Virus record (IMG/VR): IMGVR_UViG_3300001199_000001
Span: 69,404-133,403 of that record
Source: a virus
Taxonomy: Duplodnaviria; Heunggongvirae; Uroviricota; Caudoviricetes
Direction: 5' to 3' (one strand)
Length of the DNA stretch: 64,000 nt
Shown: positions 10,184 to 20,658 of the stretch, piece after piece
Position numbering within the stretch: position 1 is the stretch's first letter
Layout: every line of letters begins with the position of its first letter
Position numbers and translations under genes: made by a program
The notes under the pieces: generated by a model
What the model was told of the DNA's origin: nothing
Seen by the model: only the letters and a program-made list of their open reading frames with translations
The model's database searches: none

Positions 10184-10477
10184 ATGAAAGAAAATGAAAT
10201 CGACGTGGAACAAGGGTTCTACGAGAGATGTGCCGAACTGCTTGGCGTTCCGTACACCTACCGCTCTTATCCTTATAAGGGCCATACTTCTCGGTGGAAC
10301 AACCGAGACCCCGGCAACGGGAGATTTCCCGGTCGGGGGCTCATTCGCCTTTATGGCGATACCGTTCATATGATGCTGCGGCATCCGATCTGTATCACCA
10401 GAAGGTTTGCATCCTCAGCGGAAGCCCTAAACTTTTTAGAAGAAAAGTGTGTCAACGTTGTTGACATACCGATTTAG
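10184..10477 (+). CDS. Hypothetical protein
   Basis: ORF MKENEIDVEQ...; SRWNNR.PGNGRFPG.G motif. Confidence 0.7.
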   Translation: MKENEIDVEQGFYERCAELLGVPYTYRSYPYKGHTSRWNNRDPGNGRFPGRGLIRLYGDTVHMMLRHPICITRRFASSAEALNFLEEKCVNVVDIPI

Positions 10478-10489
10478 CGGTGCTATAAG
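10461..10489 (+). promoter_or_regulatory. Promoter of module A (Glu/Asp tRNAs)
   Basis: TTGACA-N17-TATAAG. Confidence 0.75.
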
Positions 10490-10498
10490 CTCCACACC

Positions 10499-10564
10499 AT
10501 GACCTACATGATTATCTTCCGAGAACGCGAGGCCCTGTCGGGCCGAGATACGTTCGCCGCCTAG
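10499..10564 (+). CDS. Putative leader peptide A, MTYMIIFREREALSGRDTFAA
   Basis: Near-leaderless mini-ORF after the promoter; contains GAA, GAG and GAT codons, upstream of tRNA-Glu and tRNA-Asp. Confidence 0.5.
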   Translation: MTYMIIFREREALSGRDTFAA

Positions 10565-10592
10565 TTGGCGGCAGGCGTAACCGGCCTTCTGC

Positions 10593-10667
10593 GGCCCGGT
10601 CGTCTAATAGTGAGGATACCTGACTTTCAATCAGGAGACAGGGGGGCAGTACCCCTTCGGGCTTCCA
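10593..10667 (+). tRNA. trnE: tRNA-Glu(TTC), atypical T-loop GGCAGTA
   Basis: Loop CT-TTC-AA, CCA end. Confidence 0.88.
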
Positions 10668-10669
10668 TC

Positions 10670-10743
10670 GCTCAATTCGTCTATCAGTAGGATACTAGAC
10701 TGTCGATCTAGAGAGGCGGGGGCAGCACCCGCATTGAGCGCCA
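10670..10743 (+). tRNA. trnD: tRNA-Asp(GTC), atypical T-loop GGCAGCA
   Basis: Loop CT-GTC-GA, G73, CCA end. Confidence 0.9.
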
Positions 10744-11596
10744 TGGGCCTTAGAAAGTACAACTGGCAAGAAATCCAAGCGGTTTATGACCGTGGTCTCA
10801 CGATCCGTCAGATAATGACGCGGTTCGGTATGTCCGCCGACACGATCTCAAAAGCACGCAAGAGAGGGGAATTCAAGGGACGGACAAGGACTAGAAAAAT
10901 CCCTTATCAAAGAGACTGTCATCGCTGCGGTGATACTTTCAATTTAACCGGGCACGATCAAAAATATTGCTCGCAGTCTTGCGCTGCAAGTTTTAATCAA
11001 CTGGGCACGCGCCGCTCTGATGCAACGAGACTAAAACTTAAAGAATCGGCGATCAGACTCAATGCCGCATCTAATTTCACGGATGCGTGGGGTAAGCCAA
11101 GAAGGGCTCCTCGGAAGTTGCTAGAGCAAGTCTGTCTAGATTGCGGTTCGTGGTTTAGTACGATCCCGAGCGCAAGTCGGATGTATTGTTCGATGGAGTG
11201 TACTAATAAGCACCGTCACCACCCAAACTCTCTCGCAAGACGAGCGTTACTTACTGCGGGGTACCACTCGATTCTGGTGCTGAGCGTCTAATTGCAAAGG
11301 AGTTATCCCTACTTGGGATAAGATGGAAGAAAAACAAAGTTCATATTACCAAGAGTTTCTGTTTTACGGATTTTAACGGAAAATCAAGAATGTATTATCC
11401 GGACTTCTACCTACCGGATGCTGGTGTTTGGGTAGAGGTCAAGGGTAAAAAATACATTCGTCCGGATGATAAACTTCGAATAGCGTCTGTCGACGTTCCT
11501 TGTTACTATTTGATATCGAATGAATTCAGCCAGACGCTACATCCGTTTCTGGAAGAAATTACTTCTACCATTCAATCGCGGCATCCGAAATCTTGA
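10743..11596 (+). pseudogene. Frameshifted PD-(D/E)xK (homing-type) endonuclease with HTH and Cys-rich motifs
   Basis: Frame 1 runs to ...HHPNS. The alternative frame continues RKTSVTYCGVPLDSGAE...MYYPDFYLP...VEVKG. One base appears to be missing in CTCTCTC near 11228-11234. Confidence 0.7.
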
Positions 11597-11599
11597 CCT

Positions 11600-11615
11600 G
11601 AGTCACTTAAAGTGA
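11600..11615 (+). promoter_or_regulatory. Recurrent palindromic motif GAGTCACTTWAAGTGA
   Basis: Copies at 11600, 15003, 15513, 22576, 24696, 26205, 28711, 36402, 44842, 48419 and 62025, mostly upstream of structural or lysis genes. Confidence 0.75.
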
Positions 11616-11646
11616 TATGCAAATAGGTCAGTCATAGGGGATTGTC

Positions 11647-11850
11647 ATGAAAATCGTTTACGGTAAAGCTAAGCCTGCTACCAGCCGCAGCGTCAACGCC
11701 GCGAAGATGTCTTACGGCACTGTCGCCGAGCGTTTCCCTGGCCGGAGCGGCGGTGGATACGGAGCCCTCGGCTTCGCTACCTCGGCGAATGGAACTGGTT
11801 TTGCGAACACTAGCCTGTTCGGTACAGCCGCTGTCGCCAACGCTGCCTAA
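11647..11850 (+). CDS. 67-aa protein carrying one GFANTSLFGT filament-type repeat
   Basis: GGGG RBS, upstream GAGTCAC motif, repeat shared with 774-6824 and 53501-59512. Confidence 0.65.
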   Translation: MKIVYGKAKPATSRSVNAAKMSYGTVAERFPGRSGGGYGALGFATSANGTGFANTSLFGTAAVANAA

Positions 11851-11869
11851 AATAATTCGATTAAAATAG

Positions 11870-11898
11870 TTGACACAGCGAACATCCGCTGTTAATGT
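11870..11898 (+). promoter_or_regulatory. Promoter of module B (Pro/Met/Thr/Lys tRNAs)
   Basis: TTGACA-N17-TAATGT. Confidence 0.8.
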
Positions 11899-11905
11899 AG
11901 CCACC

Positions 11906-12001
11906 ATGATCACCAAGACAACCACGCCAATGACCATGAAGCCCACCAAGCCGGTGGGGCTGTCTCTGCGTGCGTTGAAGGAACAAGAACCCGGCGGGTA
12001 G
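11906..12001 (+). CDS. Leader peptide B, MITKTTTPMTMKPTKPVGLSLRALKEQEPGG
   Basis: Codons 3-16 are all Thr/Lys/Pro/Met; followed by a terminator. Confidence 0.85.
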   Translation: MITKTTTPMTMKPTKPVGLSLRALKEQEPGG

Positions 12002-12030
12002 TAAGTTCCAAGATCAACAAGTTTCGCGAG

Positions 12031-12066
12031 ACGGCCCCGGCATAAAAACCGGGGCCGTTTCTTTTT
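12031..12066 (+). terminator. Intrinsic terminator (attenuator B)
   Basis: ACGGCCCCGG-loop-CCGGGGCCGT followed by TTCTTTTT. Confidence 0.9.
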
Positions 12067-12079
12067 GTCCATCAATCAT

Positions 12080-12157
12080 CTGTGTGTAGCTCAGTTTGGC
12101 CAGAGTACTCCGTTCGGATCGGAGGGGCCGCAGGTTCAAATCCTGCCACACAGACCA
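12080..12157 (+). tRNA. trnP: tRNA-Pro(CGG)
   Basis: Loop TT-CGG-AT, C1-G72, A73, CCA. Confidence 0.95.
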
Positions 12158-12170
12158 ATTCGAGGCGACG

Positions 12171-19621: not shown

Positions 19622-19626
19622 AGTTT

Positions 19627-19701
19627 GGACGCATAGCTCAGTGGTAGAGCAACGTGCTGATAACGCGTAGGTCGCAAGTTCAACTCTTGCTGCGTCTTCC
19701 A
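19627..19701 (+). tRNA. trnI: tRNA-Ile(GAT) #2 (U73)
   Basis: Loop CT-GAT-AA, CCA. Confidence 0.88.
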
Positions 19702-19741
19702 ATTTAACTCTAACGCCGAGGAGGCGCGAACGAAATATAGA

Positions 19742-19815
19742 TGGGCGTTGGATCAGTGGCTGATCACCTCTTTTACACGGAGGCTAGGGGAGTTCAATTC
19801 TCTCACGCCCAACCA
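19742..19815 (+). tRNA. trnV: tRNA-Val(TAC)
   Basis: Loop TT-TAC-AC, CCA. Confidence 0.85.
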
Positions 19816-19835
19816 CTTTAATATCTTCCCTCTGA

Positions 19836-19908
19836 TGGGGGCGCTGACTGATTGGTAGGTGGCCACGCCCTGAACGTGGAGGACTAGGTTCGAACCCTAG
19901 GCCCCCAT
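19836..19908 (+). tRNA. trnQ: tRNA-Gln(CTG), no encoded CCA
   Basis: Loop CC-CTG-AA; acceptor stem extended by a 15-bp flanking duplex. Confidence 0.82.
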
Positions 19909-19924
19909 CAGAGGGAAGATATGA

Positions 19925-20000
19925 TGCCGGGCGGTCTGAGTGGTCAGATACCTGACTTTGAATCAGGTGGAAGTAGGTTCGAGCCCTATACCGGCAGCCA
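19925..20000 (+). tRNA. trnQ: tRNA-Gln(TTG)
   Basis: Loop CT-TTG-AA, CCA. Confidence 0.9.
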
Positions 20001-20012
20001 AGCTAAGTTTGA

Positions 20013-20088
20013 TGAATAGTAGCTCAATTGGCAGAGCACCCGGCTGTTAACCGGGGGGTTGCAGGTTCGAAGCCTGCCTATTCAGCCA
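20013..20088 (+). tRNA. trnN: tRNA-Asn(GTT)
   Basis: Loop CT-GTT-AA, G73, CCA. Confidence 0.95.
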
Positions 20089-20094
20089 GCTTTT

Positions 20095-20170
20095 AGGAGC
20101 GTAGCTCAGTGGATAGAGCGTCAGTTTGCGGAACTGAAGGTCGCAGGTTCGATTCCTGCCGTTCCCGCCA
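20095..20170 (+). tRNA. trnR: tRNA-Arg(GCG)
   Basis: Loop TT-GCG-GA, CCA. Confidence 0.9.
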
Positions 20171-20196
20171 AGTATTGTATAGTAAATGTGTTCAGG

Positions 20197-20271
20197 AGAG
20201 GCGTAGCTCAGTGGATTCAGAGCGTCGCGCTACGAACGCGAAGGTCGCAGATTCGAATTCTGCCGTCTCTG
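20197..20271 (+). tRNA. trnR: tRNA-Arg(ACG), no encoded CCA
   Basis: Loop CT-ACG-AA; 11-bp flanking duplex. Confidence 0.85.
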
Positions 20272-20301
20272 CTGAATACATTAATGATCTTTGACATCAT
20301 T

Positions 20302-20378
20302 GTTCCCGTGGTCCGAGTGGCTTTAGGCGGTAGGCTGCAACCCTACATACGCAGGTTCGATTCCTGCCGGGAACTCCA
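20302..20378 (+). tRNA. trnC: tRNA-Cys(GCA)
   Basis: Loop CT-GCA-AC, U73, CCA. Confidence 0.93.
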
Positions 20379-20390
20379 CTATACTATAAT

Positions 20391-20466
20391 GACGCGGTAG
20401 CTCAGGGGACAGAGCATCGGTTTCCGGAACCGAGGGTCGGGGGTTCGAATCCCTCTCGCGTCGCCA
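20391..20466 (+). tRNA. trnR: tRNA-Arg(CCG)
   Basis: Loop TT-CCG-GA, CCA. Confidence 0.93.
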
Positions 20467-20467
20467 C

Positions 20468-20542
20468 GGGGTCTTAGTGAAGTGCATATCATTCTCTCCT
20501 CCTAAGAGAGCGTCAGGGGTTGGAATCCTCTAGGCCCCGCCA
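20468..20542 (+). tRNA. trnR: tRNA-Arg(CCT)
   Basis: Loop CT-CCT-AA, CCA; T-loop TTGGAAT. Confidence 0.85.
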
Positions 20543-20581
20543 CTTCGTAGTTGTTGACATAGTAGGCTTTTTCGAGTATCT

Positions 20582-20658
20582 GTGGACGTAGCTCAATGGA
20601 TCAGAGCATCCGGCTTCTACCCGGAGGGTTGCAGGTTCGAGTCCTGCCGTCCACGCCA
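20582..20658 (+). tRNA. trnR: tRNA-Arg(TCT)
   Basis: Loop CT-TCT-AC, CCA. Confidence 0.93.

Follow-up and report, generated by a model that had tools for sequence, protein, structure and literature searches.

Introduction

Enterobacteria have attenuators that respond to more than one amino acid. The ilvGMEDA leader reads Leu, Val and Ile and the thr leader reads Thr and Ile; trpL, hisL, leuL and pheL are further attenuator leaders of these bacteria. Here we describe a candidate system of related design that serves phage tRNA genes. It lies in a 64,000-nucleotide stretch of phage DNA (the window; bases 69404-133403 of the 278,859-bp virus record IMGVR_UViG_3300001199_000001), in which short open reading frames (ORFs), termed leaders A to F, precede blocks of tRNA genes. 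We propose, with a probability of roughly 0.8, that each tRNA block is an operon headed by a leaderless mini-gene that senses the same amino acids, and that modules B and E act as attenuators.

In mechanism, modules B and E would be leader-peptide attenuators, with the ilvGMEDA and thr leaders as their nearest counterparts and Escherichia coli pheST as the nearest for a target in the translation apparatus. As in the ilvGMEDA and thr systems, a 5' short ORF carries clustered control codons for several amino acids, a terminator with a mutually exclusive antiterminator lies before the structural genes, and the predicted polarity is that stalling leads to read-through. In module E, the control codons additionally take part in a 1:2 helix. 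Unlike in those systems, the phage targets are tRNA genes and a few small ORFs rather than biosynthetic enzymes, and the output feeds back on the sensed quantity. The phage leaders also differ in that they poll up to 8 amino acids, are carried on leaderless mRNA and are phage-borne, and four of the six modules lack a full switch. The pheST attenuator likewise places a translation-apparatus gene that serves the sensed codons under leader-peptide attenuation, but it is cellular, controls a synthetase gene, reads a single amino acid and has a leader preceded by a Shine-Dalgarno sequence. The defining departure from known attenuators is the target: tRNA genes, the regulated product being the sensed molecule.

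Leaderless regulatory ORFs have a precedent in mycobacteria, where leaderless polycysteine short ORFs are presented as Cys-responsive attenuators in a preprint whose abstract names no mechanism (bioRxiv 10.1101/834739). As described there, they resemble the phage leaders in that a leaderless short ORF is the first cistron and its regulatory codons tune the operon; they differ in reading a single amino acid and in controlling cysteine-metabolism genes instead of tRNA genes. T-box riboswitches also sense the charging state of tRNA and use a terminator/antiterminator switch, but they bind uncharged tRNA directly and do not need translation. The first-pass annotation of the window had named T-box control of tRNA operons as the nearest precedent, which could not be confirmed. 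A search of positions 6000-22000 gave no match at E<=1 to the T-box (specifier loop, RF00230) or any other leader in Rfam, only tRNA and chance matches.

Phage tRNA genes are commonly assumed to be expressed to fit the codon usage of the phage or to replace lost host tRNAs. To our knowledge, essentially nothing is known about how their expression is controlled. A full-text literature search, which did not cover subscription-only literature, found no published description of leader-peptide control of tRNA genes. In the genome paper of phage phiCbK, terminators were predicted with TransTermHP; they are not discussed there, and leaders or attenuation are not mentioned (PMC3556154). The phiCbK GenBank record lists the terminators.

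Results

Six promoter and mini-ORF units

Six units in the window share one arrangement, TTGAC(A/G)-N17-TAnnnn followed after 6-9 nt by an ATG without a Shine-Dalgarno sequence. Sequence reading and a pattern scan located all six where the first-pass annotation had placed promoter and mini-ORF units. The mini-ORFs comprise 21 (A), 31 (B), 28 (C), 34 (D), 33 (E) and 10 (F) codons, and all units except F are on the plus strand.

The promoter of module A (10461-10489; TTGACA, N17, TATAAG) has its ATG 9 nt 3', and leader ORF A (10499-10564, MTYMIIFREREALSGRDTFAA; read from the sequence and aligned) precedes tRNA-Glu(UUC) (10593-10664) and tRNA-Asp(GUC) (10670-10740), which match Rfam RF00005 with 45 and 41.6 bits. 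Promoter B (11870-11898; TTGACA, N17, TAATGT) is followed by leader ORF B (11906-12001, MITKTTTPMTMKPTKPVGLSLRALKEQEPGG), in which codons 3-16 all encode Thr, Lys, Pro or Met. The tRNA block behind it (12080-13473) contains Pro(CGG), Pro(UGG), Pro(GGG), Met(CAU), Thr(GGU), Thr(CGU), Thr(UGU) and Lys(CUU); small ORFs are scattered among these tRNAs, one of them a cREC_REC gene (12514-12819). In module C, the promoter (13529-13557; TTGACA, N17, TATAAA) and leader ORF C (13565-13651, MFTNAHTLLLLSDAFAASLVARAFGVKR), with the codon run TTA TTG CTA CTT, are followed at 13718-14545 by a degenerate Lys(UUU) tRNA-like element and by Leu(GAG), Leu(UAG), Leu(CAG), Leu(CAA) and Leu(UAA).

Module D has its promoter at 15819-15847 (TTGACA, N17, TAAAAC) and its leader ORF at 15855-15959 (MIKTATHSSAHSSAASAASSTAARAVSASASSLS). 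Its block (16019-17008) is made up of His(GUG), Ala(UGC), Ala(GGC), Ala(CGC), Ser(CGA), Ser(UGA), Ser(GCU) and Ser(GGA). Module E begins with a promoter at 18756-18784 (TTGACA, N17, TAGCTT) and leader ORF E (18792-18893, MSRTYTQFVQICNQVRVNRAGRTALVGDGGSEF), whose codons 5-19 poll Tyr, Gln, Phe, Val, Ile, Cys, Asn and Arg. The body of this operon (18983-20658) consists of a 78-aa ORF (18983-19219) and 15 tRNAs (19224-20658) in the order Tyr(GUA), Phe, Val, Ile, Ile, Val, Gln, Gln, Asn, Arg(GCG), Arg(ACG), Cys, Arg(CCG), Arg(CCU) and Arg(UCU). Module F (17018-17206, minus strand), delineated by ARAGORN, pattern scan and folding, comprises the promoter TTGACG-N17-TATGCA (17206-17178), leader F (17171-17139, MSYISIITIR, with three ATA codons) and tRNA-Ile(UAU) (17112-17018). 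ARAGORN reported 39 tRNA genes between 7184 and 20658. The tRNA-Glu and tRNA-Asp of block A, both missed by ARAGORN, were added by Rfam, and tRNA-Tyr (19224-19307) was added by a relaxed ARAGORN run, which also contributed to the description of block C.

The same promoter-to-ATG geometry occurs 36 times genome-wide, at 35 distinct sites. Since 21 of these sites open ORFs of 57-400+ codons, leaderless mRNAs seem to be normal for this phage, and host-type promoters that give such mRNAs, with predicted start sites, would be its normal gene start. Translation of the mini-ORFs is plausible because the same geometry starts real genes throughout the genome.

The spacers of promoters B and D carry an inverted repeat, ACAGCG(N4-6)CGCTGT, between the -35 and -10 elements (11876-11892 and 15825-15841), possibly the operator of a repressor. 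The sequence common to promoters A, C and E is instead TTGACATACC. A separate motif, GAGTCAYTTWA, is present in 12 copies in the window against 0.1 expected, mostly just 5' of genes (11600, 14165 on the minus strand, 15003, 15513, 17941, 18219 on the minus strand, 24696, 26205, 28711, 30077, 48419 and 62025); in three of these, TTCTTGAC precedes the motif. The motif probably marks a second class of promoter or regulator site that is specific to the phage and distinct from the TTGACA-N17-TAnnnn promoters.

Leader composition follows the downstream tRNA block

For each leader, the residues that fall in the amino acid set of the downstream block were compared with the amino acid usage of the long ORFs of the phage. 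The match is strongest in leader D, where 25 of the 33 residues are Ser, Ala or His (P=9e-13). It is also significant in leaders B (16/30, P=1.3e-5), F (4/9, P=8e-4) and E (18/32, P=6e-3), and it is borderline in leader C (5/27, P=0.06). Leader A has 3 Glu or Asp among 20 residues, which is not significant, and the weak Glu/Asp match that the first-pass annotation had seen in this leader is not borne out. In a permutation test, which that annotation had proposed as a check, the true assignment of leaders to blocks ranks 1 among 720 permutations. The largest off-diagonal leader-block score in the window is 10^-1.4.

Two leaders also show a bias in codon choice. ATA makes up three of the nine codons scored in leader F, compared with 0.41% of codons in the genome (P=6e-6). 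Among Ile codons, ATA accounts for 7.9%, and the probability of the observed usage given four Ile is 1.8e-3. In leader C, four minor Leu codons, TTA TTG CTA CTT, are consecutive (P=2e-3 given four Leu).

Leaders and tRNA blocks co-vary in related phages

The sole sequencing run that matched the window DNA is from a groundwater metagenome, which is probably its source; no RNA run was among the matches. The window phage is a phiCbK-like giant siphophage that belongs to the Dolichocephalovirinae or stands near them, as its tail-tube protein (26872-28710) shares 62-66% identity with those of the Caulobacter phages phiCbK, Magneto, Rogue, Colossus, BL9 and PW and of Brevundimonas phages. A search of a phage collection for near-identical DNA returned matches of tRNA size only.

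We compared the syntenic regions of seven cultured relatives, phiCbK, Rogue, BL9, PW, Colossus, Bajun and Kabachok. In all seven, the tRNAs fall into four groups: Trp/Gly; Glu/Asp; a merged Pro/Thr/Lys/Leu/His/Ala/Ser block; and Tyr/Phe/Val/Ile/Gln/Asn/Arg. A homologue of leader A, MT...(Y/F)ERE...GRDT.AA, is kept in all 8 phages, and a homologue of leader E, M..YRQFVRQIQVVRN.RAGRS..., is present in 7/7 relatives. One single leader precedes the merged block in each of the seven. The sequence of this leader varies by lineage and its composition is constant, with 33-42 of 38-44 residues within {A,H,K,L,P,S,T}. It is MFALSHNSLSTKAASPASLSLAPLATATKPSTKPTTSASHSTDHL in phiCbK and MTF.THKPSTLKPATGAASLAHASLLTPATSKPSLSRSL in PW and Colossus, and in Bajun and Kabachok it has a GTG start, (V)TTLSHKLS.... 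In the window phage, the merged block is split into operons B, C and D, each with its own promoter and a leader of the matching amino acid subset.

Individual differences in tRNA content are mirrored in the leaders. BL9 alone has a tRNA-Trp at the end of the merged block, and it alone has a Trp codon in the merged leader. The Lys codon AAA is found only in the three phages with tRNA-Lys(UUU), namely phiCbK, Rogue and Kabachok (Fisher P=0.018, ignoring phylogeny). The genes for tRNA-Met, tRNA-Cys and tRNA-Ile(UAU) occur only in the window phage; their counterparts there are two internal Met codons in leader B, a Cys codon in the control run of leader E and the ATA codons of leader F. The correct pairing of leaders and blocks ranks first in 8/8 phages scored, with diagonal P values down to 1e-12 and all off-diagonal values >0.04.

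Further evidence comes from Erythrobacter phage vB_EliS-L02 (L02) and Sphingobium phage Lacusarx, whose tail tubes are 47-49% identical to that of the window phage. In L02, leader MFNVIAMNNPAPAIMVPVAMACVEGTRD (MFNVIAMNNPAPAIMVPVAMA..) is followed by tRNAs for Pro, Pro, Met, Val, Ile, Ala and Asn; leader MTFGRTKRDRREGDERGFTS (MTFGRTKRDRREGDERGF..) by Lys, Lys, Gly, Gly, Asp, Ile, Glu, Glu, Arg, Arg, Phe and Arg; and leader MFTQTALHLLTQTTLCWQCQYSSLSPF (MFTQTALHLLTQTTLCWQCQYSS..) by Ser, Tyr, Leu, Leu, Thr, His, Gln, Gln, Ser, Cys, Trp and Thr. Lacusarx has homologues of the last two, of the Lys/Gly type and the Ser/Tyr type. The third-type leaders of both phages (L02_3 and Lac_3) are leaderless, behind TTGACA-N17-TATACT or TATCAT. 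The tRNA groupings of L02 and Lacusarx differ from the phiCbK-like ones and the leaders match the new groupings, which is the strongest test of the link between leader and block. The first-pass annotation had suggested looking for co-variation of leaders with tRNA content, and it holds in the seven relatives and in L02 and Lacusarx. These comparisons support a regulatory role for the leaders, as conserved ORFs with a composition that mirrors the tRNA genes downstream.

Mesorhizobium phage Cp1R7A-A1 shows a mere hint of a leader, VNLNVVIIPEVEPV.., before tRNAs for Val, Ile, Val, Glu and Glu. A search for related loci with the 152-aa ORF beside leader E gave none, and the 2016-aa protein was uninformative for finding relatives.

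Predicted switch anatomy of modules B and E

Folding predicts an intrinsic terminator in both modules. The terminator of module B (12028-12066) has a 13-bp stem with 10 GC pairs and a TTTTT tail (-26.8 kcal/mol) and ends 14 nt before tRNA-Pro. The terminator of module E (18924-18960) has a 12-bp stem, again with 10 GC pairs, and a TTTTTT tail (-26.1 kcal/mol). Leader B contains a putative antiterminator strand (11954-11967, GGGGCTGTCTC) that is complementary to the 5' arm of the terminator, with a duplex energy of -24.7 kcal/mol. A small CCCACC/GGTGGG hairpin (6 bp, 11941-11957) links this strand to the control codons, and pairing of the 1:2 type in B is limited to this hairpin. In leader E, folding and alignment place region 1 (GTCCGA, codons V15-R16) and region 2 within 18834-18856. 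Region 2 (18847-18856) is the antiterminator strand GGGCGGGGCG, and it encodes the conserved RAGR motif.

To capture the state in which the terminator 3' arm is still missing, transcripts ending at the terminator loop were folded with a modelled ribosome. At this stage, GGGGCUGUCUC (11956-11966) in ORF B pairs with GAGACGGCCCC of the terminator 5' arm, and GGCGGGGC (18848-18855) in ORF E pairs with GCCCCGCC. The 5' arm of the B terminator is paired with P=0.97 when the ribosome is on codons 2-13 and with 0.26-0.5 when it is on codons 14-25. In this model, the ORF strand holds the terminator 5' arm unless the ribosome occupies that strand.

The E unit of 8 phages was aligned (alignment A1) and compared with 500 shuffles and with slid alignments. 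Pairing reaches 91.7% in the antiterminator (columns 53-64 with 136-147), where 5 pairs show compensatory changes. For the 1:2 helix (columns 39-48 with 54-63) and the terminator combined, the figures are 90.2% and 6 compensatory pairs, and the 1:2 helix shows AU/GC swaps. Almost none of the shuffles and none of the slid controls do as well. In the window phage, BL9 and Bajun, changes in the antiterminator strand go together with changes in both arms of the terminator. The E unit thus has the predicted anatomy of a classical four-region attenuator. Because the antiterminator strand shows compensatory changes with the terminator arms, this strand would account for the RAGRS peptide motif.

Some merged leaders of the relatives also behave as switches in silico. 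In phiCbK, Rogue and Kabachok, equilibrium folding gives a terminator probability of ~0-0.4 with the ribosome on codons 2-33 and of ~0.95 with the ribosome between codon 35 and the stop codon. This behaviour is matched by only 0-1/40 shuffles of the upstream sequence.

Hairpins of modules A, D and F

The end of leader A lies in a conserved hairpin (10540-10587), predicted by folding and by alignment A3 with compensatory pairs. Its outer stem is GGGCCG/CGGCC, its apical loop contains the stop codon, and TTCT follows. An alternative GGCCC/GGGCC hairpin lies upstream of it. The evidence for an antiterminator in module A is ambiguous. The terminator-like hairpin of module D (15957-16017, CCTCCCTTT..AAAGGGAGG) begins at the stop codon and carries TTTATTT as its tail; folding revealed no antiterminator for it. 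The tails of the A and D hairpins are both weak. Module F has a UUCG hairpin (17135-17116, minus strand). The third-type leaders of L02 and Lacusarx are followed by a conserved stop-adjacent hairpin that shows compensatory changes and is without a U-tract. Modules A, C, D and F share the leader logic of B and E, and their read-out may run through the stop-codon hairpin or through RNA processing.

Discussion

Our proposal builds on the anatomy of the units, the match in composition between leader and block, the conservation and co-variation across phages, and the mutually exclusive helices with compensatory changes. In the proposed mechanism, a ribosome would load on the 5' AUG of the leader and trail the RNA polymerase. 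When cognate charged tRNAs are scarce in B or E, the ribosome would stall on the control codons and leave the ORF-internal strand free. This strand would pair with the terminator 5' arm, allowing the polymerase to continue into the tRNA genes. During fast decoding, the ribosome would cover the ORF strand, the terminator would form and transcription would end. The result would be a closed loop of tRNA supply and demand, similar to trp, his and ilv control but multivalent, with 4 to 8 amino acids per leader. Leader translation, the kinetic competition between helices, the polarity in vivo and the physiological trigger are what we infer from the sequences. The trigger could be rare codons early in infection, loss of host tRNAs, defence nucleases or starvation; a link to anticodon nucleases or PARIS is speculation.

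Leaders that poll the amino acids of their own tRNA block would provide simple, demand-driven control of tRNA supply. Attenuation, a textbook mechanism, would thereby gain a new kind of target gene, and a single leader would sense as many as eight amino acids. The leader signature offers a prediction of which tRNAs are co-transcribed. It also ties phage tRNA biology to host tRNA-targeting defences in an experimentally checkable way, and it is testable in phiCbK and Caulobacter. The odds slightly favour an even broader view, namely that these are the first attenuators whose product is tRNA. Each phage tRNA operon would be a closed-loop homeostat, transcribed only as long as its own codon families decode slowly. 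Phages could in this way supplement or substitute for host tRNAs that are scarce, lost to degradation in the course of infection or cut by anticodon-nuclease defences, and the principle would be widespread in tRNA-rich phages of several families.

Several observations weigh against our proposal. Leader A shows no Glu/Asp enrichment in any phage scored. The E leaders contain rare residues without a matching tRNA, Trp in PW and Cys in Kabachok and PW; these codons fall in the RNA-structure part of the ORF. No obvious leaders were seen in DSS3_MAL1, RcXuper and Mwe-JY26, which are more distant CbK-like phages. Among the merged leaders, those of PW and Colossus are without a U-tract terminator, and that of Bajun has no modelled switch. 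In ribosome-mask folding at equilibrium, the terminators of B and E always form. Equilibrium folding was rejected as a model for these two modules because the terminator always wins, and control by the antiterminator would therefore have to be kinetic, as in trp.

A canonical switch is missing from modules A, C, D and F. Folding found no intrinsic terminator between leader and tRNA in C and F. The A and D hairpins share sequence with the end of their ORFs, and in a static mask a ribosome at the stop codon melts them, which is the opposite polarity. The initial description of the locus as leader-peptide attenuation is therefore upheld by the terminator and antiterminator anatomy and the classical polarity of B and E, but not by C and F, which are without a terminator, or by A and D, whose polarity is opposite in the static model.

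The leaders also do not match their blocks codon for anticodon. With the peptide fixed, synonymous codons were redrawn from genome usage and the anticodons covered by a Watson-Crick codon were counted. Coverage by the leader codons is not above that of synonymous resampling (P 0.09-0.8): 8/8 anticodons are covered in B (P=0.09), 7/8 in D (P=0.81) and 9/14 in E (P=0.71). Because codon coverage is no better than in resampling, we place the match at the amino acid level, and codon-for-anticodon matching was retained for ATA, the Leu run and Lys AAA and otherwise dropped. The claim of the first-pass annotation that mini-ORF codons match the anticodons of their group thus stands as a match in amino acid composition for B, D, E and F, with C borderline, but not at the codon level for B, D and E.

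The modules without a canonical switch invite other explanations of how the leaders work. A form of 'stringent' control in cis, of opposite polarity, could hold for A, D, F and the stop-adjacent hairpins of L02 and Lacusarx, even with B and E being classical. Here a ribosome that keeps up and reaches the stop codon would mask the abutting hairpin, and a stall, as in amino acid starvation, would lead to termination and shut off useless tRNA synthesis. The modelled terminator probability in A and D is 0.9-0.98 with the ribosome upstream and 0-0.13 with the ribosome at the stop codon. The hairpins of D, F, L02_3 and Lac_3 begin 0-5 nt past the stop codon, with compensatory changes between L02 and Lacusarx, and across the A family the stop codon sits in the apical loop of the conserved hairpin. 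However, module B, module E and the merged leaders of the relatives have antiterminators of classical polarity that are supported by covariation, several of the stop-adjacent hairpins are without a U-tract and perhaps are not terminators, and the static mask leaves out ribosome release. We consider this explanation unlikely. Control of precursor processing or stability, in place of transcription termination, by leader translation, through access of RNase E or RNase P or through 5'-end protection, appears somewhat less probable still. It would apply especially to C and F, in view of the lack of an intrinsic terminator between leader and tRNA, and it would suit the conserved hairpins without U-tracts that lie directly 5' of the first tRNA in F, L02_3 and Lac_3. 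The analysis turned up no specific nuclease site, however, and the well-resolved modules carry textbook terminators and antiterminators. For the modules that lack such a switch, the alternative read-out may be translation-coupled masking of a hairpin with stringent-like polarity, or control of precursor processing.

The mini-ORFs might also be chance ORFs, or might encode small functional peptides with a bias unrelated to the tRNA genes. Leader A is conserved as a peptide motif without Glu/Asp enrichment, and RAGRS of the E leaders might, in principle, reflect a constraint on the peptide. The RAGRS motif is explained by the antiterminator strand with its compensatory changes, however, and the composition of the merged leaders persists while their sequences diverge. 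The leaders track the re-assorted tRNA groups of L02 and Lacusarx, composition P values reach 1e-12, and the correct pairing comes first in 8/8 phages. We regard chance or an unrelated peptide function as highly improbable. Operons headed by leaders that sense the amino acids of their own tRNA block remain our preferred explanation, and the strength of that match is of the amino acid level, with codon-level matches for ATA, the Leu run and Lys AAA.

Other features of the locus

Several neighbouring elements relate to tRNA function. The degenerate tRNA-like element between leader C and the first tRNA-Leu (13718-13797) has an acceptor stem, a T arm and a long variable arm. Its anticodon loop is CCUUUAA (UUU, Lys) with a C at position 33, and the element resembles the long-arm tRNA-Lys(UUU) of phiCbK. 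The cREC_REC (cyclic-phosphate processing receiver) gene of operon B lies between two tRNA-Pro genes (Pfam E=2.8e-24). Judging by the Pfam family name, which refers to cyclic-phosphate RNA-end processing, it may have a role in tRNA repair. An ORF with PCRF and RF-1 domains (9624-10145; a class I release factor by Pfam) is located just 5' of the tRNA leaders. Two nuclease-like genes flank the tRNA blocks, one for a protein with a helix-turn-helix and a NinG-like zinc domain (10734-11291, after tRNA-Asp) and one for an HNH endonuclease (20698-21231, after the last tRNA-Arg). They may be homing-type elements and a possible cause of the reshuffling of tRNA blocks.

The Trp/Gly tRNAs are preceded by a conserved 82-aa ORF (MLKTVYHPETNEPF..., 6897-7145), which is homologous to phiCbK gp079 and Rogue gp081 and ends 39 nt before tRNA-Trp. 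It is leaderless, behind TTGACA-N17-CAAGGT-N7-ATG (unit 6861-7145), and its stop codon is in the loop of a small GACGC/GCGTC hairpin. This ORF was considered as a sensor of Trp and Gly codons and rejected, as Trp and Gly are not enriched in it. In phage Rogue (CcrRogue), Rfam detects a skipping-rope RNA (RF02924) at 3497-3593, directly after the Trp/Gly tRNAs, with 45.8 bits against a gathering threshold of 36.7. In DSS3_MAL1, relaxed ARAGORN reports a tRNA with the amber-reading anticodon CUA, labelled Pyl, at ~7913, adjoining Val tRNAs; it may be a suppressor tRNA.

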